A stretch of DNA of 63,976 nucleotides, filler included, from Candidatus Nezhaarchaeota archaeon WYZ-LMO8 (GTDB lineage: Archaea; Thermoproteota; Methanomethylicia; Nezhaarchaeales; WYZ-LMO8), in the NCBI GenBank assembly GCA_004347965.1. It is 3 parts of 3 records of this genome, joined end to end, with 100 filler letters (N's around TTAATTAATTAA, not from the genome) between each part and the next. Parts side by side here need not be neighbours in the genome. Positions count along the whole stretch, not along the records: positions 30,326 to 59,631 come from QNVF01000016.1; 2 more parts are not named here. One strand, written 5' to 3'. Each line of letters starts with the position of its first letter. Position 1 is the stretch's first letter. The notes beneath the pieces were generated by a model. The model was not told the DNA's origin, made no database searches, and saw nothing but the letters and a program-made list of their open reading frames with translations. This document shows, one piece after another, positions 12,900 to 59,731 of the stretch. Both the position numbers and the translations under genes were made by a program.

Positions 12900-12905
12900 C
12901 CTCCT

Positions 12906-44185: not shown

Positions 44186-44197
44186 GAAGATCACTTC

Positions 44198-45223
44198 TCA
44201 ATGCTGTCTAGGATTTTGCTTCGCTCTCTTAAGTGCGAAGCTTATTATCATCTCTACAAATTCTTCAAAAGATATTCTAGCAGCTCTCAATGAGCGTACG
44301 AAGCCTGAATCTGGCGATATGTCTGGGTTAGGATTAACCTCGAGGACGTACGGCATCCCAGTTCTAGCGTCTAAGCGTACATCGATCCTCGCGTAATCTC
44401 TACACTTTAAGGCTCTATATGCTCTGATAGCTATCTCCTCAATCGTGCTCTTGAGGGGGGCATCTATCTTAGCAGGGCAGAGGGGCTTGGTCTTCACATA
44501 TTCTTCACTATCTTTAAACCACTTAGCCTTGTAGCCGACTATTTTAGGGTCTTCATCATATTCAAAAACTATCTCTGAAATCGGTAGAACAACAAGTTCA
44601 TCGTTGCCTAATATAGAGACGTTAAACTCTCTTCCACTGATGTACTCTTCGACTAGAGCTGGCTGCTCATAAGTGCTAATTACATACTTCACTTGTCTCT
44701 CTAGCTCTGCAAGGTTTCTAACAAAGCTATCCTTAGTAATCCCTATGCTAGCATCCTCTCTCAAAGGCTTAACTATAAGTGGAAAGCTTAATCCCTCTGG
44801 GGGCTCAAAGACTTTCATTACTCGATACTTTGGTGTTGGTATGCCATTAGCTCTAAGAACATCCTTAGCTAGACCCTTATCTTGACATAAACCGAGAGTT
44901 AACGGTGTAGACCCTGTGTAGGGTATTCTCAGCATCTCTAATATTGATGCTGCGTGCATTTCAAGGCTGCTATCGCCCATATACCCTTCAGAGAGGTTTA
45001 TGACTACATCAGGCTTATGGGCCCTCAACGACTTTATAATCTCCCCTATGTCATCTCTAAGTGGAAAGAGCTGATAGTTAAAGCCAAGCCTTACTAGAGC
45101 TTCTTCAACTGCCTTCACTTGATCTAGCACATTGACCTCAGCTAAGTAATCCGCATCTTCACCTTTCTTAGGTCTTACAGGGACGTTGAATAATATGCCG
45201 ACCAAAAGAGCCAACCATTTCAC
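44198..45223 (-). CDS. ATP-grasp ligase, D-Ala-D-Ala-ligase-like (paralog 2)
   Basis: INLSEG, IPYTGS, VKP..EDASIGI, EEYISGREFNV, YARIDVR, EVNPNPD. Confidence 0.88.
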   Translation of the reverse strand: MKWLALLVGILFNVPVRPKKGEDADYLAEVNVLDQVKAVEEALVRLGFNYQLFPLRDDIGEIIKSLRAHKPDVVINLSEGYMGDSSLEMHAASILEMLRIPYTGSTPLTLGLCQDKGLAKDVLRANGIPTPKYRVMKVFEPPEGLSFPLIVKPLREDASIGITKDSFVRNLAELERQVKYVISTYEQPALVEEYISGREFNVSILGNDELVVLPISEIVFEYDEDPKIVGYKAKWFKDSEEYVKTKPLCPAKIDAPLKSTIEEIAIRAYRALKCRDYARIDVRLDARTGMPYVLEVNPNPDISPDSGFVRSLRAARISFEEFVEMIISFALKRAKQNPRQH

Positions 45224-47005: not shown

Positions 47006-47095
47006 TAAAACTTCACTTGCGTACTGGAAATGCTTAAGGAGCACTTGGAGTTGTTGAATGAGTAGGTGAAGAGCTTATCAAAAATTCGCTTAAAA

Positions 47096-47768
47096 TCATA
47101 CGACTTCTCCACTTCTAACCTCTACTTCAAGCTCCCCAGATATTCGAGGGCTCCTTTATCTATCGTTACTGTGATTAAGAGAAGCTTAGGTTTAACGTTT
47201 GTGACCTTATTGTATAAAGCTCCTATTCTATGTAGCTCAGCTCCATACACTTCTTCCAGCATGGATCCTGCACTCTATTTATGCTCTTGATTCCTAACGA
47301 GAACATTGACTTTCATACTGATGGGCTTCCGTAAACAACACCATTGCTATCGTAGTAAATCCACCCTCCTAACAGCATACGTCTTCAGTAAATCTTCAAT
47401 AAGTACTTCACTGCTTATCTAAGCGCTTCCTCAGTAACGACTCCATACCCTCTACTTACCGATTGGCTGCTATGGTTCCTGTAAGGCCCTTAATATCTTC
47501 ACCTTGAAGAATGATTTCTTTCTAGAGACTTAATGGTGATGTTATGCTCAACAACAGTCCTTGCAAGAACTCAATAGCTCTAGTGTGATCAATGACTGTA
47601 TCTCGTAGGGATTCTATGGCTTTACTATGCCCGGCAATTGCCTTCTTAACCTCTATTAAGCTTAATTAATTCTTCAAGGTCCGTGAGACCTGTAATAGCA
47701 TACCTAAACTTTTCATCTTCTTTAAGTAAGATCCAAAGCATCTTCTTAAGCTCGGCTGTGGACAGCAC
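47096..47768 (-). pseudogene. Degraded DUF3782-type coiled-coil/PD-(D/E)XK protein
   Basis: Fragments in shifting frames: LSTAELKKMLWILLKEDEKFRYAITGL; HSKAIESLRDTVIDHTRAIE; YGVVTEEALR*; WIYYDSNGVVYGSPSV; ELHRIGALYNKVTNVKPKLLLIT; several stops and frameshifts. Confidence 0.72.
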
Positions 47769-48090
47769 TAGCGACAGCAATCACGATGGACTTAATTCGT
47801 CTAATGAGACTCAAGACTTGACTTAGATAAAGCCTTCGTTGTAGTTAATGTGTTAAGCTTTAAGCATAGTAGATGAGGTGGAGGTTATTTATTCGCTATC
47901 TAAAAAATGTTGTGGTTATGTCCGTGTGGCTTAATGTTGTGATGAGCTGAACAAGTTGAAATATGCTTTATCAAATGTTCTATCCTACTCGATTTCGCTA
48001 TTCACTGATGCGGTCCATAAGATACTAAATTGTTCATGCAAGGTTGTTGCAGCTATTACTATTGTCCTCTACATTATTTGTTAAGAGCAG

Positions 48091-49764
48091 CTAGGGTCTA
48101 AGCTCCATCAGTTCTACTGGTATGGTCTTCACAATCATACGACTTGCTTCGGACTTTATTATCACATGCTTGAGCCAATGAACATCATCCCTCTCAGGGT
48201 AATCTTCCCTATAGTGTGCTCCCCTGCTCTCGGTCCTATGGAGTGCTGCTGTTGCCACGATTTTGCCTGTGCATATCATATTTATCGTCTCTAAAGCGTT
48301 AATAAGTGCTTGATGACTTCTCTCCTCGCCAAGATATATTCTTGGTAACTCGTTGACTTCTATGTACTCTAGCTCGGCCAACGCTTTTTTAAGATTGTCA
48401 CCGGTCTTTACAACGCCAACGTAATCATCCATCATCTTTTGTATCTTCGACTTAACTTGTGATGCAGATACCCCTTCCTTCCTCTCATATATTTCGTCGA
48501 CCATCTTGATGCATGCTTCCACATGCTCCTCGTGGACTTCGACATCGCCAATCATTCGAGCTCTTTCAGCAGCATAAGCACCAGCTCTAGCTCCAAAGAC
48601 TTGCGTGTCAGTCAGAGCATTCCCGCCAACTCTATTTGCCCCATGCACTCCACCAGCAGCCTCACCAGCTGCGTATAGTCCTGCTATCGATGACTCACAC
48701 CTCTCATTTATTCTGACACCACCCATACAATGATGAACTCCTGGAGCCCACTCGATCGGTTGCCATGTTATGTCTATGCCTAGAGTCTGGTAAGCTTTCC
48801 AAACTTTTTCCCAAGCTTTCACTATATGCTCTGGAACTCCGGAAAGATCCATGTAGAGACCCCCACGTGGAGTAGCTTTGCCAGCCTTTATTTCTTTGTA
48901 AGCCGTTATGCATACAACATCTCTAGTTACGTTCTCCAGTTTTTCACGATCATACTTCTTCATGTATCTTTCACACAAAGCGTTGTAGAACCTAGCTCCG
49001 TGAGCAACCCAACCGTCATATGGTGGTGGAAAGCCCCTTAAACTTGGTGGATGAATTACACAAGTCATCCACTGTATGAACTCCATGTCTATAAGTTCCG
49101 CTCCAGCTCTATAAGCCATTGCATATCCATCTCCAGTTACGTCAGGTGGATTCGAGGTCAGCGAATACATGTTCCCTAAACCGCCAGAAGCTAGTACTGT
49201 CGACTTAGCCTTAAAGGCATAGAAATCCCCGGTCCTCAGATCTAAGCCTACAGCTCCTACAACAGAGTCTCCACTCTTAAGCAGATCTATTACGAAGACG
49301 TTAGAGTAAACCTGAACCCCGATACTTCGTGCTTCCTTCAGCAGCCCTCTCATGAACTCTCCGGCGACAGCTACGAAATTTCTTGGACAAGAAGTCCCCG
49401 AAGCATGTATTATCCTGTAGTTTCCAGATTCATCCTTGATGAATTCTGTGCCCATCTCTTCGAGCTCCTTAAGTCTCTGTAGAGCTTCGTACGCCATGAT
49501 CTTGACTAGCTTCTGATCGTTTATGTAGACTCCACCAATCACCGTGTCTTTGAAGTGCATTTCTGGGTTGTCTTGAGGTAAGTAAGCAGCTTGATAGCCC
49601 CCCATAGCTTTTGGAGTACAGCCAGAGGGAAATCCTCCCTTGGCTACTAGCACAACATCAACTCCTCTACGCTTAGCCTCGATGGCTGCTCGTGTCCCTG
49701 CTCCGCCAGCACCTATAATTAAGACGTCCGTCTTAATTAGCTCGTAGTTCTTAGTCATGAACAA
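48091..49764 (-). CDS. SdhA/FrdA/TfrA-family flavoprotein (TfrA-like, no covalent-FAD His)
   Basis: GAGGAG, SGCT..A.GG, TGDG, RD, HHCMGG, HGANRVGGNAL, RTESRGAHYREDYP. Confidence 0.85.
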   Translation of the reverse strand: MFMTKNYELIKTDVLIIGAGGAGTRAAIEAKRRGVDVVLVAKGGFPSGCTPKAMGGYQAAYLPQDNPEMHFKDTVIGGVYINDQKLVKIMAYEALQRLKELEEMGTEFIKDESGNYRIIHASGTSCPRNFVAVAGEFMRGLLKEARSIGVQVYSNVFVIDLLKSGDSVVGAVGLDLRTGDFYAFKAKSTVLASGGLGNMYSLTSNPPDVTGDGYAMAYRAGAELIDMEFIQWMTCVIHPPSLRGFPPPYDGWVAHGARFYNALCERYMKKYDREKLENVTRDVVCITAYKEIKAGKATPRGGLYMDLSGVPEHIVKAWEKVWKAYQTLGIDITWQPIEWAPGVHHCMGGVRINERCESSIAGLYAAGEAAGGVHGANRVGGNALTDTQVFGARAGAYAAERARMIGDVEVHEEHVEACIKMVDEIYERKEGVSASQVKSKIQKMMDDYVGVVKTGDNLKKALAELEYIEVNELPRIYLGEERSHQALINALETINMICTGKIVATAALHRTESRGAHYREDYPERDDVHWLKHVIIKSEASRMIVKTIPVELMELRP

Positions 49765-50073
49765 ACACCAAGAAGCTATTATCTAGGTTACTCTACAAAA
49801 AGTTTTTCAAATAACCTTAACTAGCGGGTAATAACTAACCTTCATAACATCGACCAAACCTTTGCTTAAAAATAATTGCATACATGTACTTAATATTCAG
49901 ATGATCCATCTTAATTCTATACGAAGAGACTTCTATAAGGCAATGTTGGAGACATGGATAAATCCTGCATGTTGAAGAGCTATGCGATTATTTATGGAAA
50001 TCCATTAAAAAAGATTGTGATATTGTTCTTATGGATGAAAATCAAAATAAATAAGGATCGCAAGATCCTGACT

Positions 50074-51207
50074 TTAAATAGTTACTTGTATGCCTTTTAC
50101 CTTTCTAGCTATCTCGTCTCCAACTTCATCTGTGCGAGCTGAGCCGCCAAGATCTCGCGGGAGGACTTTGCCTTCCTCAAGCAATTCTATGACCGCAGTC
50201 TCTATTCTAGTAGCAGCCTCAGCAGCAGCTTTATCTTGGTACTTCGTCTGGAAGTACCTCATGAGCCACATCACTGACAGGATTGATGCAAGAGGATTAG
50301 CAACTCTTTTACCGTAATACTTGGGTGCTGAACCATGCACTGGCTCAGCCATAGCTAATTTGTCCCCTACTTGAATGCTAGGGGCAAGTCCGAGCCCTCC
50401 TTGTATAGCTGCTGCAAGGTCTGTTATTATGTCGCCGAACATGTTTGAGGTAACGCAGACGTTGTACCATTCAGGTCTCCTAATGGCCCACTGAGTCCAA
50501 GCGTCTACGTATGCGTAGTCCTTCTCTATGTCTGGATATTCTTGACCTACCTTGTTGAATACTTCTCTCCAAAAAACGCAACCCTTCAATACATTGCTCT
50601 TATCTATACACGTGACCCTCTTCTTACCGTCAACTGGAGCTCCATGAGGTAGTGATCTTGCAAGTTCAAAAGCGTACCTTATGACCCTCTCGCAACCCTT
50701 TCGTGTTAAAACTCTCACATCTATGGCTAACTCTGATTCTCCCCCTCTATTGAGTCTACCTCCTATGCCTTGATAGAGACATTCGGTGTTCTCTCTTATT
50801 ATGACCATGTTTACATCCTTTGGCTCTTTCTTGATTGGTGTTGGTACATTGGGGTAGAGCCTACAAGGCCTAACATTAGCGTAAAGATCTAAGCCAAACC
50901 TCACATCGAATATGAGTTTAGCGCCGGCATAAGTGCCATCAGGCCATCTAGCATCCTGCCAGCCAACAGCTCCAAATATGATGCCATGACTCTCTCTGCA
51001 TGTTGGCAGCAGCTCGGGTGGATACTCTTCTTTTAAATTCTTTAGATAGTACATAGCCCCTGCTTCAAACTCTATAAACTCAAAGTTCAATCCGGTGATA
51101 ACTTCTTCGCAGGCTTTAAGAACCTTTACTGCTTCCGGTGTCACTTCTCGTCCAATGCCATCACCGGGCACAACTACTATCTTATATTTGCTCGGCACAA
51201 CAGACAC
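50074..51207 (-). CDS. Beta-decarboxylating dehydrogenase (isopropylmalate/tartrate/D-malate family)
   Basis: [46 protein letters not shown]. Confidence 0.9.
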
Positions 51208-51308
51208 CGCTTAGTGGGTGCTCAAAATCGCATATAAATGCTTAACGCTTCCAATAACCTAAAAAGTTGATGGCTCTTAGAGGTAAAAAAGGAAGGTAAA
51301 GGATGATA

Positions 51309-52526
51309 CTACTCTGTTACCATGTCGAGAATCTCCATTAGGTCATACATTTTCATGTGGGAGTCCGTCATTTGTATGGCATCGCTTAGGTTCCTGTAAC
51401 AGAATGGACATATCGACGTAATTATGTCAGCACCTGTTCCTTCAGCCTCCCTAAGCCTATTCTTAGCTAACGTTAATGAAACTTGAGGGTTGTAAGACCT
51501 AAGACCCCCACCAGCACCACAACACCAAGAATTCCTCCTAACCCTCTCCATTTCAATAAACTCTAGACCTGGTATCCTCTTGAGTACTTCTCTTGGCTGT
51601 TCGAATATCTCAGCCCTCATATGCACCAAGTGCCTACCAGTATGGCATGGATCATGATAAGTGACCTTGTGCTTAAACTCCTTCTTTATAGAGAGCTTAC
51701 CTTCATTTATTAATTGAAGAGCTAGATCGATCGCATGCCTTAATTCGAATGGGGGTTGTAGCCCTAGTTCTTGGTAGTCAATCTTAAATGCTCTGTAACA
51801 GCCAGCACATGAAAACACAACCGTTTTGGCCCCAGCATTCTTTATCGCATTTATGTTATGCTCAGCCAGCTTTCTTGCTAGCTCTCTATGACCTATCCTA
51901 ATCATTGGAGAGCCGCAGCACCACTCATCTCCATATAGTAAAGCGACATTTATTCCCACTTTTTGGAGTAACCTCAATGTCGCAGAAGCAATGTTCTTTT
52001 GTCTATACGAAGACGTACAACCAACGAAGTACACTACATCGCCTCTACTTGGAGGTTGCTTCACGTCTTCAGGGAGCCATTTTACTCTGTCTTCGTGCTT
52101 CTCGAGGTATGGATTATGCTCTTTCTCAGTCCATTCTAATATCTCTTTATGCCTTGGACTTATGAGGCCTGCTTTAAACAGATCGTGCCGAAAGGCCTCG
52201 TAGATTTCAACTGTATTGAGCATGTATTTGCCTTCAAGTCTCGTCTGAGCTACGTAACACTTGTCCCAGCAGTTCCTACAAGTTGGACAGGTGTAGAAGA
52301 GTTCTGCCAGCTTCTCGTTGAGTTGAAGCTTCCCTTCAATAACAAATCTTAGTAGCATTAACCGACCCCTGGCAGAGTATGGTTCGAAGCCAGGTGTCGT
52401 GTCAGCCTCTCGTAGTGGACATACTTTGTAGGCAGCATCTCTGTACCTCGCAAAATCACGGCAGTAACCACACCTGATACATCTATATATTTCGTCTATG
52501 TAACTCTTCACAAACAACTCAGACAT
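51309..52526 (-). CDS. HdrD/GlcF-like Fe-S protein (2x[4Fe-4S] plus two CCG domains)
   Basis: CIRCGYC, CPTCRNC; GC...CCG...CAGC and HDPC...CCG...CPFC. Confidence 0.88.
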   Translation of the reverse strand: MSELFVKSYIDEIYRCIRCGYCRDFARYRDAAYKVCPLREADTTPGFEPYSARGRLMLLRFVIEGKLQLNEKLAELFYTCPTCRNCWDKCYVAQTRLEGKYMLNTVEIYEAFRHDLFKAGLISPRHKEILEWTEKEHNPYLEKHEDRVKWLPEDVKQPPSRGDVVYFVGCTSSYRQKNIASATLRLLQKVGINVALLYGDEWCCGSPMIRIGHRELARKLAEHNINAIKNAGAKTVVFSCAGCYRAFKIDYQELGLQPPFELRHAIDLALQLINEGKLSIKKEFKHKVTYHDPCHTGRHLVHMRAEIFEQPREVLKRIPGLEFIEMERVRRNSWCCGAGGGLRSYNPQVSLTLAKNRLREAEGTGADIITSICPFCYRNLSDAIQMTDSHMKMYDLMEILDMVTE

Positions 52527-52543
52527 ACCTACACCTCCAGTTT

Positions 52544-53953
52544 CTATAACAATAAGAGACCTGGGTTCAAGATGTTGTTAGGATCCAAGGTCCTCTTGAG
52601 AGACCTCAAGAAGTCGAAATATACACCTGTATATGCTCTTGCTACTCTTTCACCTATGACCTTACCGAGCCAATAATGTATTGCTCCGTATCTTATTTCG
52701 TTCTCTATTAAGTCCCTCCATATCTTCCTCACCCATTCTCTAGCTTCTTCATCTTTATCAAACCAGTACAACACGTTCATTGGGTCAAGAGCGTTCTCAA
52801 CTACTAGTGAGGCTACGTAGAAGTCTATCCTCTTTTCCTTCATCACTTCTCTGTACTTGTCTAACACCCTATACCACAAGTCTCTATGAGCTGGGTAGTC
52901 CAATATTGGAACCTTGTAGCAGGCTGTTATCCACGCCTGTCCGAGGGGACCTGTTCTAGGTTGCCATTCCCAAGGTCTTGTGAAATTCCAAATTGGGAAG
53001 TCAGGGGGGACCTCTTGACCATCGTGCTTCTTCATTATGTCGTCTATGAGTGCTTTATGCTTCTCAACTTCATCTTTACTATAACCTTCCACATGTATGT
53101 GTACGGAGAAAGGTGCATCAGCTAGCCCTCTAAAGCCAGCCTTACCAAAGATTCTATTAAAGTCAGGTTCTAAGAGCGCTATATTGGTCGCTCTACGCTT
53201 TGACTGAAGCTCATGCATTGCTCTGCAAGCTTTTTCAAGATCCTGAAAAACATAACTGCCAAATGCCTGCTCATCGGGCCAAGGGATTATCTTTAGTGAC
53301 GCTTCGGTTTTAATGCCGAATACCCCTTGATCTCCAATGAACAAGCCCGTTGTGTCGGGACCAAACCCCCACCTAGTGAACTTCTTAGCATAAGGGTTAG
53401 CTCCCGAACCGGTCCTTATAACATCGCCTGTTGGTAGTACAACTTCAAGGCCAACGAGTATATCAGCAACTGAGCCGTATTTCGCACTTCCAAGACCAAC
53501 ACTGGCATTACTTATCGAGCCGCCCACGGTTGCAGCACCACCACTGAAGGGCCCGTAGAATGGTGTTCGATATCCCTTCTTCTTGAGGTCGTAGGTCATT
53601 AATGACCAGTTGATTCCAGCTTGAACGGTAACGGTCATGGAAGTCTCGTCCAGTTCCACTATCTTAGACATCCTGGTCATATCAATGGTAATTCCACCAC
53701 TTCCAGGTGGAAGGCCAACCAAGCCTGCTCCTCCACCTCTAATGATTATGGGCACTTTAAATCTATTAGCCACCTTCACTATTTCAGCAACTTCCTCTGT
53801 CGAGGATGGCCTTACGACTACGTCACAAACCCTGGGAGGCTCTGGGCTAGCATCCCTGGAATATGCCAGTCTAACGTTAATGTCATCGCTAACGAACTTT
53901 GAGCCTACGATATTACTTAAAGCTTCTACAAGAGCTGAGTGTGGGCTTACCAT
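52544..53953 (-). CDS. FAD-binding oxidoreductase, GlcD/VAO-PCMH fold
   Basis: P.STEEV, RGGG.G, ATVGG, GLEVVLPTG, GDQGVFGIKT, LDPNNILNPG. Confidence 0.88.
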   Translation of the reverse strand: MVSPHSALVEALSNIVGSKFVSDDINVRLAYSRDASPEPPRVCDVVVRPSSTEEVAEIVKVANRFKVPIIIRGGGAGLVGLPPGSGGITIDMTRMSKIVELDETSMTVTVQAGINWSLMTYDLKKKGYRTPFYGPFSGGAATVGGSISNASVGLGSAKYGSVADILVGLEVVLPTGDVIRTGSGANPYAKKFTRWGFGPDTTGLFIGDQGVFGIKTEASLKIIPWPDEQAFGSYVFQDLEKACRAMHELQSKRRATNIALLEPDFNRIFGKAGFRGLADAPFSVHIHVEGYSKDEVEKHKALIDDIMKKHDGQEVPPDFPIWNFTRPWEWQPRTGPLGQAWITACYKVPILDYPAHRDLWYRVLDKYREVMKEKRIDFYVASLVVENALDPMNVLYWFDKDEEAREWVRKIWRDLIENEIRYGAIHYWLGKVIGERVARAYTGVYFDFLRSLKRTLDPNNILNPGLLLL

Positions 53954-54113
53954 GCCTTAAACCCATAGAGTGTAAGTTATTTCTCATTTTAAAGTTTTCT
54001 AAGAACTAATTGGCTTGTGACATAACCCAAGTAGATAATGTGCAAATGGAGAGTTCTACACTTCACTATATTTCTTCATGATATTACAAAGTAGAAAAAG
54101 GGGGGTTAGGAGC

Positions 54114-55349
54114 TTACCAGCCCTTACTTAGTATCGTTGCAGCATTGTTTCCTGCGTAGCCATAAGTTTGAGCTAGAGCATGTCTTAGATCCTTCTTAAC
54201 TTGCCGTTGACCTGCTTCTCCACGCAGCTGCCAAACTAGTTCACATACTTGAGCTAGACCTTGAGCTACAACAGCTTCGCCAAATGCTCCAATACCACCA
54301 CTTGGACAAACAGGTATTTTGCCAGTTATGGGGTCTAAGTCGCCTTGTCTCAACATCTTCTCAGGCTCTCCTGGGTCTAAGTTCAATATGCAATCTAAGT
54401 ACGCGAAGTAATGCCAAGAACTGTTATCCGGCAGTTCAATTACATCTATCTTGTCGGGTGTTAGTCCAGCCATCTTGTAAACTCTTTGAACAGCATTTCT
54501 ACTTTCGCTAAGCGTTGGCACTCCTGGCTTCTTAAATGAGCTCGTATAGGTAAGTCTAACAGTTGGATCGCCGAATGATGGGGTACCAACTGTGACTGCA
54601 TTTATGTAAACTGGCTTCTTACATATCTTCTTAGCCTTCTCGTACTCGCATACAACGACGGCTGCAGCCCCATCGCTCGTAGAGCAAATCATCAATAACC
54701 TCAATGGATCACAGACCATCGGCGACTTCAATACCTCCTCTAGAGTGAAGGTTCTTTGATACCTAGCATAGGGGTTGTGAGGTGCTGGCTTGCTCGTTAC
54801 GACCTTAACTAGTGCTAAGTCTTCTTCTGTTGTCCCAGCTTCATACATCCTTCTCCTACACTCCATAGCCCAATACGCGGGGTTAGTCTCTCCACACATG
54901 ACGAACCTTATATAATCTATGTCGGCCTTAGCATCTGTTGATTGCGGCCTGAAGAAGCCGAAAGCTGACTTATCAGCAGCTACTGCAAGTGCTATATCAC
55001 ACTCGCCGCTTGCAACTGCTAGAACAGCTTCTCTTAATATTGACTGACCAGTGGCACAAGCATTTGCTACGCTAACAATTGGTATCCCCGTATAACCCAT
55101 TAAGTTGGCTATTGCAGTCCCACTTAGTATGCCATGCACTCCAGCTTGCTGACTAACCCACAAGTAGACGCCAGCAACCATAGCCTCCACTTGACGCCAG
55201 CTTATTTTGGCATCTTCAAGTGCTCTCTTAATGGCTTCAACAGCCATTTCTGGCATGGTTCTTTCAGGGTATGCTGTCGGGTTCTTAGGATCTGGGTATC
55301 TTCCCCACGGTATCATTCCAACTCCAATAATTGCAACATCCCTCTCCAT
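54114..55349 (-). CDS. SCP2/Ltp-type thiolase-family protein
   Basis: NACATG, SDGAAA, PSGG, Q..ELVWQLRGEAGQRQV; His motifs altered. Confidence 0.85.
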   Translation of the reverse strand: MERDVAIIGVGMIPWGRYPDPKNPTAYPERTMPEMAVEAIKRALEDAKISWRQVEAMVAGVYLWVSQQAGVHGILSGTAIANLMGYTGIPIVSVANACATGQSILREAVLAVASGECDIALAVAADKSAFGFFRPQSTDAKADIDYIRFVMCGETNPAYWAMECRRRMYEAGTTEEDLALVKVVTSKPAPHNPYARYQRTFTLEEVLKSPMVCDPLRLLMICSTSDGAAAVVVCEYEKAKKICKKPVYINAVTVGTPSFGDPTVRLTYTSSFKKPGVPTLSESRNAVQRVYKMAGLTPDKIDVIELPDNSSWHYFAYLDCILNLDPGEPEKMLRQGDLDPITGKIPVCPSGGIGAFGEAVVAQGLAQVCELVWQLRGEAGQRQVKKDLRHALAQTYGYAGNNAATILSKGW

Positions 55350-55360
55350 ACTACATCCCC

Positions 55361-55819
55361 CTACTTCTTACTTACATCTTCAACTGGTTTCCACATCCAA
55401 GTTATGTACTCGTTCTCCCCATCTTCGTATAGCTTGCCAACAGTTAATTCAACCTCCATATCGCATCTTAAGTTCTCAGTCGTAGCCAACATTCCCAAAA
55501 CCCTTATTCCCTCTGGTAAGTCAACTAAGCCTATAGCATACGGCTTGAATGGCTCCATCTTGAATGGTGGAGGTGGAGAATATCGTTGAATTGTCCAGCT
55601 CCACAGCTTGCCTCTACGGCTTAGTTCAATGACCTCCATGTTGCCAGGATCTTTCTCACAATCTGGATTGGGGCAGTAAGCAGCTTTTGGGAAGACTATG
55701 GCACCACACTTCTTACAACGGGCGGCTATGAGGGCTGGTTTATCTGAGGGCCAAGTGAAGAGACCTTCAACTATTGGGACCTTCTTCTTCTCTTTCTTAA
55801 TGAGTGCTTCTCCGTTCAT
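55361..55819 (-). CDS. DUF35/ChsH2-type Zn-ribbon OB-fold protein
   Basis: CKKCG..FP..YCPNPDC, GKLWSWT, PYAIGLVDL.EG; directly upstream of the thiolase. Confidence 0.9.
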   Translation of the reverse strand: MNGEALIKKEKKKVPIVEGLFTWPSDKPALIAARCKKCGAIVFPKAAYCPNPDCEKDPGNMEVIELSRRGKLWSWTIQRYSPPPPFKMEPFKPYAIGLVDLPEGIRVLGMLATTENLRCDMEVELTVGKLYEDGENEYITWMWKPVEDVSKK

Positions 55820-55936
55820 GTAGATCGCTTAATAAATTGTAGTTACTGCACCTATAATTCTTACGTTGCAAAAATCCATGAAAGGGCTTAATTAATTGAG
55901 ACTTCCTACATTTTATGATTACACTTTGATTGAAAT

Positions 55937-57307
55937 GTGAGTCTAGAGTTTTGCTTAAGTCAATTAGCGTGTAGATTAAAATATAGGATTAAGCTATTAA
56001 GGTTGGTAAGGAGTTTTATGAGGTCTACGTTTCTTGAAAGGTGGTTTGAGGAGATCGATGAGGTTAAGCGGAGGTATTGGAGAAACATAGTATACGAAAT
56101 TGCTCCCAAAGATCTCCCACCAATTGACGAAGTTAGAGCGGTTAAAGAAGCTCTTAGAAAGCCAATAGCGTCCAAGCCATTAAGTGAGATTGCAGGACCA
56201 GGCATGAAAGCTGTCGTGGTCGTTGACGATATTACTAGGGCTACGCCAAGACAGAGAATACTCCCAGTGATTCTTGATGAGCTTAATCATGCTGGAATTC
56301 TCGACTCTGACATTAAGATAGTGATAGCTTTAGGCACACATAGATACTTGAAGTCCGAAGAGATCGTAAAATGTGTTGGTGAAGAAGTTGTTAGAAGGGT
56401 CGAAGTATTGAACCATGAGTGGATGGACAAGGAGAAGCTAGTCTACATCGGTGAGACCAGAAGCGGCATACCAGTATACGTCAATAAGCTTGTCTACGAA
56501 GCCGACTTAATAGTGGGTGTTGGCTGCATAATACCGCACCTATATGCTGGTTATGGTGGGGGGGCTAAGATAATTCAGCCAGGTGTATGTGGTGAGATCA
56601 CCACTGCCCGTACTCATGTCCTAGGAGCTCTCATCGGTCCAGAGAATTTGTTGGGAAATCCTTACAACGAGGTAAGGATGGAGATGGAGGAGGTCGCTGA
56701 GACTGTGGGCTTGGACTTCATAGTCAACGTGGTCTTAAATGGAAGAGGTGAGGTGGTCAAAGTGGTTGCAGGTGACATGAGAGAGGCTTTTAGAAAGGGG
56801 GTTGCAGTTGCTGAGGAAGTCTATAAGAGAGAGATACCGAGATTAGCTGATGTGGTAGTAGTTAACTCGTACCCTGCAATCCTAGACTACTGGCAAGCTA
56901 TAAAGGGGTTAGTTCATGCTCAATTAGGAGTCAAGGAAGGCGGTACAGTCGTTTTGTACACTGATTGCCCGGATGGAATATCAGCTACGCATGGAAAAGT
57001 ATTTGAAAAGTATACTAAGATGAGCTTAACAGAGATCGAAAAGAAGCTTAAGGAAGCCGAAGGAGAAGACCTTATCGGATTGAGCACCCTCTTCGTTCAT
57101 AAAAAGTGCTTAGCAAAGACCAAGTGCATATGCATATCTGAGGAACTTAGCATTAGGGATAAGGAGATACTCAGCTTTACTCACGCCGATACCATAGTTA
57201 AAGCTATTGAAGAAGTGCTTAGTGAATACGGTAGAGATTCTGAGATAGGCTTAATACATCATGGAGGAGAGGTCTTTCCCCAGCTGAAGGGCTGTATCGT
57301 TAAGTGA
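55937..57307 (+). CDS. larA: LarA-family nickel-pincer racemase/epimerase
   Basis: DDITR, ALGTHR, PHLYAGYGGGAK, downstream His (RTH), WQAIK; true start probably ~56018 or later. Confidence 0.85.
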   Translation: MSLEFCLSQLACRLKYRIKLLRLVRSFMRSTFLERWFEEIDEVKRRYWRNIVYEIAPKDLPPIDEVRAVKEALRKPIASKPLSEIAGPGMKAVVVVDDITRATPRQRILPVILDELNHAGILDSDIKIVIALGTHRYLKSEEIVKCVGEEVVRRVEVLNHEWMDKEKLVYIGETRSGIPVYVNKLVYEADLIVGVGCIIPHLYAGYGGGAKIIQPGVCGEITTARTHVLGALIGPENLLGNPYNEVRMEMEEVAETVGLDFIVNVVLNGRGEVVKVVAGDMREAFRKGVAVAEEVYKREIPRLADVVVVNSYPAILDYWQAIKGLVHAQLGVKEGGTVVLYTDCPDGISATHGKVFEKYTKMSLTEIEKKLKEAEGEDLIGLSTLFVHKKCLAKTKCICISEELSIRDKEILSFTHADTIVKAIEEVLSEYGRDSEIGLIHHGGEVFPQLKGCIVK

Positions 57308-57308
57308 T

Positions 57309-57332
57309 ATACCTAGTTCTTAAGATAGGTAT
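57309..57332. terminator. Hairpin between convergent larA and SDR genes
   Basis: ATACCTA-GTTCTTAAGA-TAGGTAT, 7-bp arms just after the larA stop. Confidence 0.25.
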
Positions 57333-57357
57333 GTGAAGCTACTCGAAAACTTCATGC

Positions 57358-58269
57358 TCACAGATGAAATTTTAGGTGATTAATGTAGTCAGTCACTCCA
57401 TCTCTTATTGTATACTTTTGCTTGTATTGTAGTTCATCCCTGATTCTATTAGCATTAACAAGAACTCTCGGTGTCTCATCTCCCGGCTCTACCTCAATTT
57501 GTGCCTCTGGCACTAATTCTTTAACGTAGCTAGCTAGCTCTCTTAAGGTCACGACCTCGTCGCATGTATTGTAAATACAGTATTTGTGGTGTTTAACGTT
57601 TAAGCCGAACCACAATACGTTAGCAGCCTCCTTAACATACTGAAGTACTAGTTTCGTATCGGCCTTCGTGACTAGCACCTTCCTCCCCGCCACTGAGTCC
57701 TCGAAGAGCAATACAAGGATATCCATGAAGCCTATTCGATCGCGTCCTGGACCGAAGACTAGGCCGAGCCTAAGCCCTAAGATATCTAGACCGTAGGTTC
57801 CCCAATAATATTGAGCGTTAAACTCGTTAACGATGTAGCTCACTCCATGACCTACCATTGGCTTTACTGGGGCATCTTCATCAACCCTAACTTGAGAGTA
57901 GAGGTGTGGTGGACCTAGTTGAGCATACGAACTAGCCCAAACAAGTCTCTTCACATCAGTTAATCTTACGGCTTCCAAGACATTTAAGAATCCTGTAATC
58001 ATAGTCTTCACAACGTTTTTCGGAGTCCAAGGAGGTCTCTCAGCAGCAACGTATATTACATAGTCCACACAGTACCTCTTAATTACGCTTATGACCTCAT
58101 CTATCTCAGTTATCGAGCCTCTCTCTATCTTCACCTTATCCTTAATGTCACTTATCTTGGAGGTATCGCTTGATCGACTAAAAACTATGACGTCAGCGTT
58201 CTCACTTAAAAGCTTACGAACTGTGTGAGAACCTATGAAGCCTGTTCCGCCTATTACTAGGCATCGCAT
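57358..58269 (-). CDS. Extended SDR (NAD-dependent epimerase/dehydratase fold), atypical active site
   Basis: GGTGFIG, ASS, LR..LVFGPG; YxxxK position reads HGVSY. Confidence 0.85.
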   Translation of the reverse strand: MRCLVIGGTGFIGSHTVRKLLSENADVIVFSRSSDTSKISDIKDKVKIERGSITEIDEVISVIKRYCVDYVIYVAAERPPWTPKNVVKTMITGFLNVLEAVRLTDVKRLVWASSYAQLGPPHLYSQVRVDEDAPVKPMVGHGVSYIVNEFNAQYYWGTYGLDILGLRLGLVFGPGRDRIGFMDILVLLFEDSVAGRKVLVTKADTKLVLQYVKEAANVLWFGLNVKHHKYCIYNTCDEVVTLRELASYVKELVPEAQIEVEPGDETPRVLVNANRIRDELQYKQKYTIRDGVTDYINHLKFHL

Positions 58270-58277
58270 CGAACCAC

Positions 58278-59483
58278 CTACTTGTACACCATCTTCGCTA
58301 AGAGCTCTATTACATCGTAGAACTTGATCCTCGAATTTACAGCGTTTATTGCGTCAACCAGATTCCTCTTGCAAAATGGACATGCAGAGACTAAGACCTC
58401 TGCGTCTACACTCTCAGCTCTCTTAACGGTTGCTATTCCTATCCTTAAAGCTAGCTCGCTGAAGCCAGATTTTACTCCTCCTCCACCACCACAACAGATC
58501 GCGTATTGCCTTGTCGGAGTCATCTCTACGAACTCTACTTCCGGGACACTCTTTATGATCTCTCTTGGAGGATCATAGACCCCAGCATGCCTACCTAAGT
58601 GGCATGGATCGTGATATGTGACTCTGCAGTTAACGCCCCCAATGACCTTCAGCCATCCCTTCTCGATAAGCTCCCAAATAAGCTCGGTCGAGTGGAGAAC
58701 CTCGAAGTCCCACTTCTCACCTAGAATTTCAGGGTAATCGAGCTTTAGAGTCCTGTAGCAACCAGCGCATGAAGTAATGACCCTCCTTGCCCCAACCCTC
58801 TTCAATTCTTCTAAGTTGTGCTTAGCTAAAGTCTCAACGTAGTCCCACTGACCAGTCCTTAGGAGAATCGATCCGCAACACCATTCATCAATTACTGCTG
58901 GCGATATACCTGCCCTAGTCAGTACTCTGATGGTACTCTCGCATATCTCTGGATGTCTATAAGGCGATGTGCAACCCGCGAAGTACACTACATCGCCTTT
59001 CTTAGTTGGCTTATAGCTACTTAGAAGCCAAGCAAATCGGTTTTCGTGAGGTTCTCCATAAGGGTTCTTATGCATGGCTATGTTAACGCTAACTTGACGA
59101 TGCTTCTCTAAGAGCAGGTTAGGCTTTCTCTTGAATATCTCGGCTCGTAGAGCCTCAAAAATCTCTACTTGGTTTAGTTCATCTACATTAGAGACCCCCA
59201 TGACAACTGGAAGGTGTATTATGCAAACTTCATGGCATGCACCACACAGAGTACAGCTGTAAACTACCTCAACAAGGTCCTCTGTTATGTCGATTTCTCC
59301 CTCTAAAAGTCCCTGGGCCATGGCTAGTCTGCCTCTAGCAGTTAAGAAGTCCCACGGACCTTTAGGATTATGCTCATATACTGGGCATATCTTGTGTATC
59401 CCGCGATCAGCGAAGACAGGTGTTCTACACCAACCACATCTAGCACACCGATAGATTTGCTTGGCATAATTCTCCAGCATCAT
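58278..59483 (-). CDS. HdrD/GlcF-like Fe-S protein (second paralog)
   Basis: CARCGWC, CTLCGACHEVC; GC...CCG...CAGC and HDPCH...CCGGGG...CPFC. Confidence 0.88.
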   Translation of the reverse strand: MMLENYAKQIYRCARCGWCRTPVFADRGIHKICPVYEHNPKGPWDFLTARGRLAMAQGLLEGEIDITEDLVEVVYSCTLCGACHEVCIIHLPVVMGVSNVDELNQVEIFEALRAEIFKRKPNLLLEKHRQVSVNIAMHKNPYGEPHENRFAWLLSSYKPTKKGDVVYFAGCTSPYRHPEICESTIRVLTRAGISPAVIDEWCCGSILLRTGQWDYVETLAKHNLEELKRVGARRVITSCAGCYRTLKLDYPEILGEKWDFEVLHSTELIWELIEKGWLKVIGGVNCRVTYHDPCHLGRHAGVYDPPREIIKSVPEVEFVEMTPTRQYAICCGGGGGVKSGFSELALRIGIATVKRAESVDAEVLVSACPFCKRNLVDAINAVNSRIKFYDVIELLAKMVYK

Positions 59484-59493
59484 TTATCCCCCC

Positions 59494-59631
59494 TCATAGA
59501 CCCATTATCCCGGGAGCCATTATGTTGTTCGGATCAAGAATCCTCTTGAGCTTCTTGAGGACTTCATAGTAAAGTCCCAACTTAGGCATCTGATCAGCCC
59601 ATAGAGCCCCCATCCTATAGGGGCATGCTCC
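59494..59631 (-). CDS. FAD-binding oxidoreductase (GlcD/VAO fold), C-terminal fragment cut by contig edge
   Basis: Manual translation GACPYRMGALWADQMPKLGLYYEVLKKLKRILDPNNIMAPGIMGL*. Confidence 0.8.
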   Translation of the reverse strand, partial: GACPYRMGALWADQMPKLGLYYEVLKKLKRILDPNNIMAPGIMGL

Positions 59632-59731
59632 NNNNNNNNNNNNNNNNNNNNNNNNNNNNNNNNNNNNNNNNNNNNTTAATTAATTAANNNNNNNNNNNNN
59701 NNNNNNNNNNNNNNNNNNNNNNNNNNNNNNN
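59632..59731. other. Artificial contig linker (N44-TTAATTAATTAA-N44)
   Basis: Same structure as 30226-30325. Confidence 0.98.

Follow-up and report, generated by a model that had tools for sequence, protein, structure and literature searches.

A redox gene cluster of a Nezhaarchaeota genome composed of two older gene blocks, with a possible link to the heterodisulfide

The 11.5-kb redox gene cluster at the end of a contig in G000, the Nezhaarchaeota MAG under study (an mcr-encoding hot-spring methane archaeon; 93% complete), is read here as two older gene blocks brought side by side in this genus only, partly decayed and not one pathway. In this reading, to which we give about an even chance, the FADox/CCG enzymes would pass electrons to a disulfide, probably CoM-S-S-CoB, and LarA would supply the right enantiomer. 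If true, a flavin/iron-sulfur enzyme feeds electrons to the disulfide of the methane cycle. Block 2, in which a nickel-type racemase stands beside a flavin/iron-sulfur enzyme, has the clearest logic of the units and is the best kept.

Gene content and motifs

The window, the whole stretch analyzed (63,976 nucleotides), consists of three contigs (C7, C8 and C59) joined by N. An earlier note was therefore correct in stating that the cluster extends past the end of its contig: FADox2 is cut at 59631, and the ribosomal operon beyond 59732 is no neighbor of the cluster. The GC content is 0.43–0.45, versus 0.39–0.47 across the whole window, and there is no compositional sign of foreign DNA. Since the gene order of the sub-blocks is kept in three other genera and the base composition is ordinary, this is a true gene cluster, beyond chance. 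The redox genes that the note had listed are real, with nine complete and matching the expected families in Pfam and NCBIfam. All reading frames are intact except that of the second FAD oxidase, which the contig end leaves only partial (Table 1). Hence one of the two claimed pairs of FAD oxidase and HdrD/GlcF protein, FADox1–CCG1, is complete, and the other amounts to CCG2 and the last 45 codons of FADox2. As the note had also stated, there are several transcription units, at least five by our count, on both strands across the 11.5 kb.

Table 1. Genes of the cluster, with positions along the window
Gene	Position	Strand	Family evidence
A, SdhA/FrdA/TfrA-like flavoprotein, 557 aa	48091–49764	−	Pfam FAD_binding_2 + Succ_DH_flav_C; NCBIfam TfrA 502.8 bits vs cut-off 718
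B, beta-decarboxylating hydroxyacid dehydrogenase (IPMDH/tartrate-DH/homoisocitrate-DH family), 377 aa	50074–51207	−	Pfam Iso_dh 299.7 bits
CCG1, HdrD/GlcF-type Fe-S subunit, 405 aa	51309–52526	−	Pfam CCG x2 + Fer4_8
FADox1, VAO/PCMH-fold flavoprotein, 469 aa	52544–53953	−	Pfam FAD_binding_4 135 bits; FAD-oxidase_C just 35 bits
Thiolase-like, SCP2/"lipid-transfer" type, 411 aa	54114–55349	−	Pfam Thiolase_N + Thiolase_C_1
DUF35, ChsH2-type zinc ribbon + OB fold, 152 aa	55361–55819	−	Pfam OB_ChsH2_C + zf-ChsH2; BbsA-like 72.9 bits
LarA-family NPN-dependent 2-hydroxyacid racemase/epimerase	55937–57307	+	Pfam Lar_N + LarA_C
Atypical extended SDR, 303 aa	57358–58269	−	Pfam Epimerase 106 bits
CCG2, second HdrD-type Fe-S subunit, 401 aa	58278–59483	−	Pfam; cysteine map
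FADox2, final 45 codons + stop, cut by contig end	59494–59631	−	Translation matches C-terminus of G006 FADox2

Gene content and motifs are demonstrated, and the deviations from canonical motifs reported for the flavoprotein, FAD oxidase, SDR and thiolase were confirmed in all four by alignments and a motif scan. Aligned to solved SdhA chains and paralogues, A has Cys at the covalent-FAD His, Met at the His of QFHPT and an altered T/E loop; it retains the Arg of TRD, the His of HHCMGG and the Arg of GANRVGG. No SdhB or TfrB partner gene adjoins A in the G000 cluster, and its orthologues (77–90% identity) occur in G006, G009, G008 and G001. B is the third such paralogue in G000, the other two being on C3 and C12. 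Its conserved motifs align without gaps to a solved IPMDH, and it falls under the cut-off of every NCBIfam equivalog (best IPMDH, 318 vs 393); orthologues of 83–96% were found in G006, G009, G001, G007 and G008.

The thiolase-like protein, as aligned to 6esq, 7yvy and 6hsj, retains the Cys nucleophile, has lost the catalytic His (GH to GE) and reads PDNS for HDCF; its NCBIfam PRK06059 score is 368 bits (cut-off 424). DUF35 proteins are the usual scaffold partners of SCP2-type thiolases, and the DUF35 gene lies 11 nt upstream. The pair is kept in G006, G007 and G009, and thiolase orthologues (87–97%) occur in G006, G007, G008 and G009.

Two blocks in related genomes

The composite origin was demonstrated by comparing 10 family genomes, G000 and nine others. 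In three sister genera the cluster genes lie in two separate blocks. Block 1 holds A, B, FADox1–CCG1 and DUF35–thiolase; block 2 holds LarA next to FADox2–CCG2, with or without the SDR. The block 1 order in G007, G008 and G009 is A / CN-hydrolase / B <> TfrA'B' / CCG1 <- FADox1 <- canonical GlcD-like / 3HCDH / thiolase <- DUF35. Orthologues of five of these genes (CN-hydrolase, TfrA'B', the canonical GlcD-like gene and the local 3-hydroxyacyl-CoA dehydrogenase) were not found in G000, whose block 1 is a shortened version of a larger block present at family level. In G008, block 1 (282–295 kb) and LarA-CCG2-FADox2-SDR (433–439 kb) are about 150 kb apart on one contig, and in G009 the blocks are on separate contigs (C7 and C9 of that genome). 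Fusion was seen only in G000 and G006, whose gene order is the same.

These arrangements bear on the proposal of the earlier note that a single catabolic route comprises all nine or ten genes. A non-standard hydroxy- or dicarboxylic acid would be racemized, oxidized or decarboxylated, with electrons going to a thiol/disulfide. Everything does lie within 11.5 kb in an order identical in G000 and G006, and a malate-racemase-like LarA and a D-malate/tartrate-DH-like B are compatible families. Moreover, most genes are covered by RNA-library contigs: contigs 95–99% alike cover A, B, CCG1, FADox1, thiolase, DUF35 and CCG2/FADox2, which means presence in an RNA library and is not proof of transcription. 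Nevertheless, the synteny check that the note had suggested in related MAGs largely refutes the proposal, as the genes proved partly scattered and independently distributed (G008, G009). Across the 10 family genomes the distribution varies from gene to gene, the transcription units are spread over two strands, five block 1 genes are missing, and G006 carries broken copies. A single pathway is thus very improbable.

In G006, a sister species, a deletion of about 1.4 kb fuses FADox1 and CCG1, the SDR is split into four pieces and contains three stops, and a frameshift is read in FADox2. In contrast, 11 neighboring genes are intact, and A, B, thiolase, DUF35, LarA and CCG2 are retained, which indicates that the broken modules are dispensable. 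Much of the cluster might then be decaying in this genus, with FADox1–CCG1, lacking a GlcD-like subunit, and the Lys-less SDR as non-functional relics still undisrupted in G000. The trimmed order shared with G006 and the missing block 1 genes in a genome as complete as G000 agree with this. It is, however, quite unlikely given that every G000 frame is intact, that FADox1 folds confidently in the model and is predicted to bind CCG1, that RNA-library contigs cover both genes, and that FADox2–CCG2 is a two-gene unit with no GlcD-like gene in every genome where it was seen.

The FAD and iron-sulfur subunits

For the favored two-block reading, each FADox/CCG pair would be a soluble two-subunit flavo-iron-sulfur oxidoreductase, in which the HdrD-type subunit offers its ferredoxin-like N-terminal domain as the docking site of the FAD subunit. 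From FAD, electrons would pass along two [4Fe-4S] clusters and then two CCG (HdrB-type non-cubane) clusters to a disulfide, the direction being the presumed one. The FADox1 stop is followed after 17 nt by the CCG1 start. By the cysteine map, CCG1 and CCG2 each have two ferredoxin-type 4-Cys motifs and two complete CCG motifs, with all 10 CCG-motif and 8 ferredoxin cysteines; judged by sequence, they are complete HdrD-type modules. CCG1 has no 2Fe-2S domain and matches the TfrB model at positions 143–487 only (221.7 bits vs cut-off 385). CCG2 is 40% identical to CCG1, and its orthologues (70–84%) directly follow FADox2 in G001, G005, G006, G008 and G009, which makes adjacent FADox2–CCG2 orthologues in five of the nine other family genomes.

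The first 400 residues of FADox2 are on contig C38 (7274–8473, + strand), also running off its contig end, and are 82–92% identical to FADox2 of G006, G008 and G009. Going by these orthologues, some 17 residues would be unassembled between C38 and 59631. DNA-run contigs continue past 59631.

The FADox1 model (pLDDT 93.3) has mouse LDHD as its nearest solved fold (TM 0.81–0.84). Complex prediction for FADox1 and CCG1 scored 0.92, the best of three controls reaching 0.00. Of 157 solved complexes, 116 attain that score, as do 2 of 215 mismatched pairs; these counts are rough since own alignments were used. The prediction runs share at least 77% of contacts, with partner pLDDT of at least 89, and the predicted interface lies on CCG1 residues 10–102, the ferredoxin domain. 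This supports a FADox1–CCG1 complex, although resemblance to solved complexes may account for the pass.

Unlike D-2-hydroxyacid dehydrogenases, with their His/His/Glu-His metal site, FADox1, FADox2 and FADox3 lack HxGDGNxH and EHGxG in the motif alignment. Our own residue mapping matches these motifs to His398, His405, Glu442 and His443 of mouse LDHD, the alanine mutants of which lose all activity according to parts of PMC10589216. The hydroxyacid oxidation step put forward in the earlier note is therefore unproven, and substrate chemistry is the weakest step of the explanation. The cap domain has nearly no invariant residue among 60 FADox family members, so that the FAD subunits could be non-catalytic and GlcE-like. 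FADox1 holds the middle, GlcE-like position of a GlcD-like/FADox1/CCG1 operon in G007, G008 and G009; the canonical GlcD-like gene that precedes it there was not found in G000. Overall, the genes, the motifs and a possible disulfide link survive from the first interpretation; the single pathway and hydroxyacid oxidation are not supported.

LarA and the SDR

G000 has one LarA gene, probably starting at 56042 (421 aa) by orthologue comparison. The protein retains every cofactor and catalytic residue (D98, R101, H135, H201, K211, H227, Q320 and K323). It reaches no characterized NCBIfam equivalog (LarAH6 malate racemase, 329 vs 500; LarA, 266 vs 460), and its closest solved relative is Mar2 (6d6z). 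The SDR, the last gene of the FADox2-CCG2-SDR operon, starts 8 nt after CCG2; it has the GGTGFIG NAD(P) motif, and YxxxK reads YIVNE, with no Lys (motif scan). SDR orthologues (61–62%) lie beside FADox2 in G001 and G008.

In the proposed mechanism, the LarA-type nickel-pincer racemase, which faces this operon, would convert either enantiomer of a 2-hydroxy (di)carboxylic acid into the other, giving the flavoenzyme access to both, the substrate and the feeding of FADox2 being presumed. LarA might instead be unrelated to FADox2–CCG2, an inherited chance neighbor that epimerizes a sugar acid or other hydroxyacid, with a non-hydroxyacid as FADox/CCG substrate. The fetched flanks of the eight closest non-family LarA orthologues (60–64%) contain no FADox or CCG gene; DUF169 follows in 4/4 examined, and DHDPS-type, Zn-ADH or SSF genes occur in 3/4. 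One 44% relative adjoins altronate/galactarate dehydratase. LarA is also on the strand opposite to the FADox2 operon, the FADox proteins have no hydroxyacid site, and in G005 LarA was found neither on the 7.3-kb FADox2–CCG2 contig nor elsewhere in the genome. Yet LarA orthologues (64–82%), present in three of the nine other family genomes (G006, G008 and G009), all lie within about 0.6 kb of the FADox2–CCG2 pair or its SDR, and the adjacency persists in three local arrangements (G000/G006, G008, G009) as flanking genes change. Further, distant LarA genes adjoin a canonical GlcD-type gene at 4 of the 54 LarA loci fetched (L053, L059, L064 and L080), three with a CCG protein: the pairing of a racemase with a neighboring GlcD/CCG enzyme has independent origins in bacteria and Bathyarchaeia. 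An unrelated LarA is thus unlikely.

Electron acceptor and known systems

The genome context is likewise demonstrated. The search for mcr, hdr and larBCE genes suggested beforehand found McrA, two HdrABC-type loci (HdrB/HdrC with HdrA-like genes), LarB, LarC and LarE in G000, which makes a flavoprotein link to CoM/CoB disulfide chemistry chemically possible. As the organism makes CoM-S-S-CoB, the disulfide acceptor would most probably be the heterodisulfide. The claimed CCG-linked disulfide chemistry thus gains from the complete HdrD-type modules, these genes and the predicted FADox1–CCG1 complex, with the acceptor itself a presumption. McrA occurs in 4/10 family genomes, exactly the LarA-bearing set (G000, G006, G008 and G009); the co-occurrence may be a single event, since the four genomes are kin.

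The same architecture could serve another acceptor, namely a lipoyl GcvH-like or DsrC-like carrier, or HdrA/Etf-type complexes. McrA was not found in G001 (88% complete) or G005 (75% complete), both with FADox2–CCG2, or in G007, which has block 1. The FADox1 family is large (2152 matches at E<=1e-20 among 8000 candidates scored) and common in Asgard and Bathyarchaeia MAGs. In G000 a GcvH gene stands alone with no glycine-cleavage neighbors, and an HdrD-like gene is beside EtfAB and HdrA-MvhD. But the GcvH gene lies near no FADox/CCG gene, neither block holds a carrier gene in G000, G008 or G009, and the heterodisulfide is made by the organism, so we regard another acceptor as somewhat unlikely.

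Lactate, GlcD and LarA go unmentioned in the main text and one supplement of a paper on a cultured relative. GlcD/HdrD pairs are already known for the lineage: parts of two published studies describe hdrD co-located with glcD and propose heterodisulfide reduction (PMC6421429; PMC6783470).

Gene content and layout of the cluster

The WYZ-LMO8 genome (G000) is an assembly of 1.35 Mb in 78 contigs, 93% complete, and the window joins its contigs C7 (1–30225), C8 (30326–59631) and C59 (59732–63976) with N runs between them. The genome belongs to the Nezhaarchaeota (Methanonezhaarchaeia), a name also borne by its closest database proteins and by one related locus. Each spacer (30226–30325 and 59632–59731) consists of two 44-N runs flanking 12 ordinary letters. 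The redox cluster is the terminal 11.5 kb of C8, and the ribosomal protein genes after 59732 belong to another contig and are no true neighbours of it. The gene places and families given in an earlier note were reproduced as nine complete ORFs, with the families assigned by Pfam and NCBIfam. The same note described two FAD-oxidase/CCG pairs on an island running off the contig end. C8 does stop within a gene, FADox2; the FADox1–CCG1 pair and CCG2 are complete as described, while of FADox2 only the C-terminal peptide lies inside the cluster. In a sister species (G006), the gene lying upstream of CCG2 ends in a matching peptide. Residues 1–400 of FADox2 were located on contig C38, which itself ends mid-gene, and are 82–92% identical to the gene of G006 and of two sister genera, G008 and G009; about 17 residues are absent between C38 and C8. 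Contigs from public DNA runs continue beyond 59631.

Features of the cluster at the end of contig C8
Feature	Position	Strand	Basis
A, SdhA/TfrA-like flavoprotein	48091-49764	-	ORF + Pfam/NCBIfam
B, IPMDH / tartrate-DH family	50074-51207	-	ORF + Pfam/NCBIfam
CCG1, Fer4 + 2xCCG	51309-52526	-	ORF + Pfam/NCBIfam
FADox1, FAD_binding_4	52544-53953	-	ORF + Pfam/NCBIfam
Thiolase-like	54114-55349	-	ORF + Pfam/NCBIfam
DUF35	55361-55819	-	ORF + Pfam/NCBIfam
LarA homologue	55937-57307	+	ORF + Pfam/NCBIfam
Extended SDR	57358-58269	-	ORF + Pfam/NCBIfam
CCG2	58278-59483	-	ORF + Pfam/NCBIfam
FADox2 C-terminal piece, final 45 residues + stop	59494-59631 (138 bases)	-	Translation of contig end

Intergenic gaps are short from FADox1 to CCG1 (17 nt), from DUF35 to the thiolase gene (11 nt) and from CCG2 to the SDR gene (8 nt). 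A and B are each preceded by gaps of 100–300 nt, and LarA is the sole gene on the opposite strand within the cluster. One metatranscriptome run (X13) contains contigs 95–99% alike over A, B, CCG1, FADox1, thiolase, DUF35 and CCG2/FADox2, one of them spanning the CCG1/FADox1 boundary and one the thiolase/DUF35 boundary; these contigs stem from a 95–99% relative, not from G000, and their presence is no proof of transcription. X13 cover is absent over LarA and SDR (55862–58393), and this uncovered part is uninformative.

Other features of the window were observed. The convergent 1.1-kb gap at 47005–48091 has no ORF longer than 82 aa and no RNA-library cover, and its G006 counterpart spans about 600 nt. 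Scanning the contig, this gap included, against Rfam and for tRNAs gave zero matches. Two D-Ala-D-Ala-ligase-like ATP-grasp genes (43133–45223; 42–44% mutual identity) stand tail to tail, are also found in G006 and form an unusual cargo in an archaeon. An 89-nt direct repeat, 97.8% identical (17071–17159 and 18051–18139), lies within the tandem genes 17019–18005 and 18002–18970, which are probably recent paralogues or the product of gene conversion.

Conservation of gene order and gene decay

Forty related genomes were searched with LarA, McrA, A, B, FADox1, FADox2 and SDR, and the loci were fetched. The entire gene order of the cluster is conserved in G006. The earlier note had suggested one organic-acid pathway for the cluster, and the synteny check speaks against it: three sister genera (G007, G008, G009) lack this order, and the genes fall into two separate blocks, the first with A, B, FADox1–CCG1 and DUF35–thiolase, the second with LarA and FADox2–CCG2, with or without SDR. 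In G008 a single contig carries A, B and FADox1 at 282–295 kb and LarA at 433 kb, and in G009 the blocks are on separate contigs, C7 and C9. The cluster is real but composite, being two blocks and not one pathway.

Block 1 of G008 and G009, and over two contigs of G007, runs A, CN-hydrolase, B, TfrA'/TfrB', a three-gene operon (canonical GlcD-like, FADox1, CCG1), a 3-hydroxyacyl-CoA dehydrogenase and, adjoining it, the DUF35–thiolase pair. B and the full TfrA'/TfrB' pair face opposite ways, and TfrB' scores 540 bits, above the cut-off of 385. A tblastn search of the whole of G000 with the CN-hydrolase, TfrA', TfrB' and GlcD-like proteins of G009 found no orthologue, so block 1 of the window is a trimmed copy.

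In block 2, FADox2 is directly followed by CCG2 in five other family genomes (G001, G005, G006, G008 and G009). The SDR gene follows CCG2 in G000 and G006 and precedes FADox2 in G001 and G008. LarA orthologues were found only in G006 (82% identity), G009 (70%) and G008 (64%), and always adjoin FADox2–CCG2. The outer flanks vary: G000 has a Lon-type protease there, G009 a molybdopterin oxidoreductase, and G008 peptidase and TIM genes. Downstream of FADox2–CCG2 in G005 (L098, contig C65, 3625–6157) come genes for a luciferase-like (F420-type) oxidoreductase and for a di/tricarboxylate transporter of the DASS type; neither LarA nor McrA was detected in this genome. The transporter is a single hint toward a dicarboxylate substrate. 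A "joint" from 51667 to 58751, seen in three runs, was considered as a deletion and rejected; its shorter side is 25 letters and it links the paralogous CCG1 and CCG2, and it was read as a paralogue cross-match.

The trimming is more advanced in G006, where several of these genes are broken. FADox1 residues 1–172 are fused into CCG1 residues 169–405 by a deletion of about 1.4 kb, the SDR gene survives as four pieces with three stops, and FADox2 carries a frameshift. The breaks fall at about 11850–13070 and 16510–17430 of the joined region L014. Since they are confined to FADox1, CCG1, SDR and FADox2 while 11 neighbouring genes align over their full length, the pattern, at least for SDR and the 1.4-kb deletion, points to real pseudogenes and not to chance errors of assembly.

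The FADox/CCG pairs

FADox1 has the two-domain VAO/PCMH fold (Pfam FAD_binding_4, 135 bits). Its model has a mean pLDDT of 93.3, and the best solved Foldseek matches are mouse LDHD chains (TM 0.81–0.84), followed by vanillyl-alcohol-oxidase-type enzymes. The family is large: of the 8000 candidates scored, 2152 matched it at E<=1e-20. It occurs commonly among Asgard and Bathyarchaeia MAGs and has few invariant residues outside the FAD domain. For the FADox/CCG proteins, NCBIfam scores lie below the cut-offs for GlcD (145 vs 568), GlcE (74 vs 284) and GlcF (70 vs 333).

Alignment showed that the motifs HxGDGNxH and EHGxG are both missing from FADox1, FADox2 and a third paralogue, FADox3 (C14). 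Both are present in the canonical GlcD-like paralogue of G009 and in all four LarA-adjacent GlcD-like genes of other lineages. In mouse LDHD, according to PMC10589216, metal is bound by His398, His405 and Glu442 and substrate by Arg347 and His443, and replacing the metal and substrate residues with alanine abolishes activity. By a mapping made in this analysis, the two motifs would correspond to His398, His405, Glu442 and His443. The LDHD metal and substrate site thus mapped appears to be absent from the FADox proteins, as judged by sequence alignment only, Foldseek having given whole-fold matches and no residue superposition. With the GlcD/LDHD catalytic motifs absent, the name "GlcD" is misleading for these proteins.

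CCG1 and CCG2 have the two 4-Cys ferredoxin motifs and two complete CCG motifs (C...CCG...CxxC) of HdrD-type proteins. In CCG1 these are C16/19/22/36 and C80/83/86/90, and C170/203/204/240/243 and C294/335/336/373/376; CCG2 carries an equivalent set, and all these cysteines are invariant or nearly so in an 11-sequence alignment. Complex prediction for FADox1 with CCG1 gave a score of 0.92 (best of three controls, 0.00), a mark that 116 of 157 solved complexes attain, as do 2 of 215 mismatched pairs; these counts are only rough, as custom alignments were used, and a pass may reflect likeness to solved complexes. The runs agreed on at least 77% of contacts, with a partner pLDDT of at least 89. 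In the predicted interface the FAD domain of FADox1 sits on CCG1 residues 10–102, the site of the two ferredoxin-type clusters. The most defensible description of the pairs is that of soluble flavo-Fe-S oxidoreductases ending in an HdrB/HdrD-type disulfide site.

Mcr, Hdr and other CCG genes of the genome

A search of G000 for mcr and hdr genes recovered McrA (216 bits) and two HdrC/HdrB loci with HdrA-like genes. McrA and these HdrABC-type loci form the genomic context for a putative CoM-S-S-CoB reductase activity of the CCG proteins. One HdrC/HdrB locus adjoins a molybdopterin subunit and resembles the Fwd-Hdr cluster that PMC12700198 describes for a cultured relative. One supplement of the cultured-relative paper contains no racemase, glycolate, LarA, GlcD, HdrD or fumarate reductase entry; expression data for these genes may exist elsewhere.

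Ten CCG-domain proteins are encoded in the 1.35 Mb of G000, two of them in the window and some at the two HdrC/HdrB loci. Others include a third FADox/CCG pair and a degenerate CCG protein on C14, a near-canonical Tfr pair on C51 beside fumarase genes (665 vs 718 and 375 vs 385), and a second Tfr-shaped pair within a catabolic cluster on C1. C1 also has an HdrD-like CCG protein beside EtfB/EtfA and an HdrA-MvhD fusion (L031:2389-9090), which may be an Etf-linked Hdr module. C56 (L030:4691-6722) encodes LutA (CCG) and LutB (LUD and Fer4), genes of L-lactate oxidation, and the organism may handle lactate by this second route. A lipoyl carrier serving the FADox/CCG modules was considered and rejected, as the one GcvH gene (C17, L097:1459-1893, minus strand) is not near FADox or CCG genes; it stands alone, flanked by the genes for ribosomal protein S10 and RadA, and none for glycine cleavage adjoins it.

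LarA and its link to FADox2–CCG2

The LarA homologue has the Pfam domains Lar_N and LarA_C and the residues that define the superfamily. H135, H201, K211 and H227 are conserved in the four orthologues; over 12 homologues H135, K211 and H227 do not vary, and two have another residue at H201. The protein was also aligned to Mar2, and the Lys that tethers NPN, the His that binds Ni, both catalytic His and the Arg/Gln/Lys that bind the carboxylate are all conserved. The protein falls below the equivalog cut-offs for LarAH6 (329 vs 500), LarAH10 (297 vs 540), LarA (266 vs 460) and LarAH5 (251 vs 462). A search of the genome for larB, larC and larE found all three, above their cut-offs: LarC (356 bits) has LarB (224 bits) as its neighbour on C67, and C27 carries LarE (280 bits).

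Within the family, McrA was found in G000, G006, G008 and G009, exactly the four genomes with a LarA orthologue, and was not found in G001–G005 or G007 (69–93% complete). The four genomes are kin, so this co-occurrence may be a single event.

A scan of genome contigs with the single LarA protein found no relative, and the four-orthologue alignment was used thereafter, giving 54 LarA loci. The fetched flanks of the eight closest orthologues outside the family (60–64%; MAGs labelled Sulfolobales/Desulfurococcales) contain neither FADox nor CCG genes. In all four of those examined (L044, L046, L047, L050) LarA is directly followed by DUF169, and genes for a DHDPS-type aldolase, Zn-ADH or SSF transporter are close by in three of them; LarA–DUF169 may be an undescribed partnership in sugar-acid metabolism. 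Four Asgard loci (L062, L065, L068, L069) with a CCG or FADox gene 4–6 kb from LarA were rejected as linkage, being separate units with IlvD-type dehydratase, hydrolase, CdhC-like and CbiA-like genes.

Distant LarA genes stand directly beside a GlcD-type gene at two Dethiosulfatarculus loci, in a Clostridia MAG and in a Bathyarchaeia MAG. All four FAD proteins have canonical motifs, and a CCG protein is present at three of the loci (both Dethiosulfatarculus loci and the Clostridia MAG). From these loci, the pairing of a racemase with a D-specific flavoenzyme is a recurring, known kind of arrangement, and the Nezhaarchaeota version is one with a non-canonical flavoprotein.

Altered active sites in the remaining enzymes

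The earlier note held that the flavoprotein, the FAD oxidase, the SDR and the thiolase depart from canonical motifs, and alignments and a motif scan bore this out for all four. A was aligned to solved SdhA chains and to the near-canonical Tfr flavoprotein on C51. It has Cys at the covalent-FAD His position, Met for the QFHPT His and YD in the T/E loop, and retains the TRD Arg, the HxMGG His and the GANR Arg; the same active-site changes recur in the orthologue from G009. The roles given to these fumarate-site residues in A (QFHPT His, T/E loop, Arg, His, Arg) follow the SdhA/FrdA literature.

The thiolase-like protein keeps the Cys nucleophile (NACATG), while GH is changed to GE and HDCF to PDNS, leaving incomplete a catalytic triad that normally comprises the Cys nucleophile, the GHP His and the HDCF Cys. 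Ordinary thiolysis is doubtful because the catalytic His and HDCF are substituted. The SDR has the NAD(P) motif GGTGFIG, its expected catalytic site reads SYIVNE, and the motif scan found no YxxxK anywhere in the protein.

B has its family fold and conserved motifs, which align gap-free with solved IPMDH, and scores below the NCBIfam equivalog cut-offs for IPMDH (318 vs 393), TTC (292 vs 470) and AksF2 (275 vs 540). A role as AksF in coenzyme B synthesis was rejected as the main reading of B, a third paralogue that also occurs in G001 and G007, where McrA was not detected. A route from LarA as malate racemase to B as D-malate decarboxylating dehydrogenase was also rejected, because in G008 and G009 a long distance separates the two genes. 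Together with the SDR and the thiolase-like/DUF35 pair, A and B are conserved enzymes whose sites are altered; no ties of theirs to the CCG proteins were found beyond neighbourhood.

Discussion

The functional units that can best be defended are the FADox/CCG pairs and, in family members with Mcr, the LarA gene that is tied to one pair. To our knowledge, "GlcD/HdrD" pairs are mapped as a lactate-linked heterodisulfide reductase in almost every newly found mcr-bearing archaeon, and no member has been biochemically proven or purified. An essential or simple lactate-type role for the present pairs is argued against by the missing LDHD site, by their presence in relatives with no detectable Mcr and by the decay in G006. 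Here, then, is one mcr-bearing lineage whose flavin subunits lack the residues for D-lactate dehydrogenase function, which has several old paralogous pairs, and in which one pair accompanies a nickel-pincer racemase only in the Mcr-carrying family members.

LarA, FADox2 and CCG2 make a concrete three-protein system. That it forms a hydroxyacid:CoM-S-S-CoB oxidoreductase in methane-making Nezhaarchaeota, with a new flavoprotein active site free of the LDHD metal triad, is an idea that we regard as improbable. If true, a lactate- or malate-type organic acid would be a direct electron donor for heterodisulfide reduction, allowing organic-acid-driven methyl-reducing methanogenesis without H2 or formate. 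In a bolder form, the LarA homologue itself would be the hydride-abstracting subunit, passing electrons to a GlcE-like FAD subunit. For the pairs themselves, CoM-S-S-CoB as acceptor has already been put forward in print for the lineage (PMC6421429, PMC6783470); the literature search turned up no publication that connects HdrD to LarA or lactate racemase in archaea of this kind. For annotation, such pairs should not be labelled lactate or glycolate enzymes, and a tidy 11-kb cluster need not be one pathway.

Comparison with known systems

The LarA homologue shares its fold family and its cofactor and catalytic residues with the malate racemase Mar2/LarAH6 (6d6z, 7s91) and with lactate racemase LarA (5huq), but the window orthogroup has its own N-terminus (FLERWFEE...) replacing the usual first strand. 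The thiolase and DUF35 genes share the gene pair, the folds and the Cys nucleophile with SCP2-type systems (the archaeal acetoacetyl-CoA thiolase complex 6esq, BbsAB 7pxp and the Ltp2-ChsH2 aldolase 6ok1), whereas the catalytic His and HDCF are replaced in the window protein.

TfrAB, the thiol:fumarate reductase of methanogens, provides the best model both for A (TfrA) and for CCG1 and CCG2 (the C-terminal two thirds of TfrB), and its chemistry is of the same kind, a flavin connected via Fe-S clusters with a CCG site that works on CoM/CoB. Nevertheless, A scores 502.8 bits against a TfrA cut-off of 718 and has lost the covalent His and the QFHPT His. It has no TfrB beside it, and neither CCG1 nor CCG2 is adjacent to it. 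Both CCG proteins lack the 2Fe-2S (Fer2_3) domain, their TfrB match starting at model position 143 or 172.

The GlcDEF-type D-lactate dehydrogenase/glycolate oxidase of sulfate reducers has the same subunit architecture, a GlcD-like FAD protein with a GlcF/HdrD-like CCG protein, and likewise a predicted docking of the FAD subunit onto the ferredoxin domain. In E. coli the gene order is glcD-glcE-glcF, which is mirrored in G007, G008 and G009 by canonical GlcD-like, FADox1 and CCG1 genes, with FADox1 in the middle. Unlike GlcDEF, FADox1 and FADox2 lack the His/His/Glu-His site, and the canonical GlcD-like subunit is missing from G000. The LDH gene clusters of A. fulgidus are discussed in PMC3949148.

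Published counterparts are the "HdrD/GlcD" pairs of Methanomethyliales, Bathyarchaeota, Methanohydrogenales (Nezhaarchaeota) and A. fulgidus, for which PMC6421429 and PMC6783470 propose a reduction of CoM-S-S-CoB. Lineage and proposed acceptor are the same, as is the layout, a FAD_binding_4 protein directly upstream of a Fer4 + 2xCCG protein. The G000 system differs in that its FAD subunits lack the GlcD/LDHD catalytic motifs, that it comprises three paralogous pairs, and that one of these is tied to LarA.
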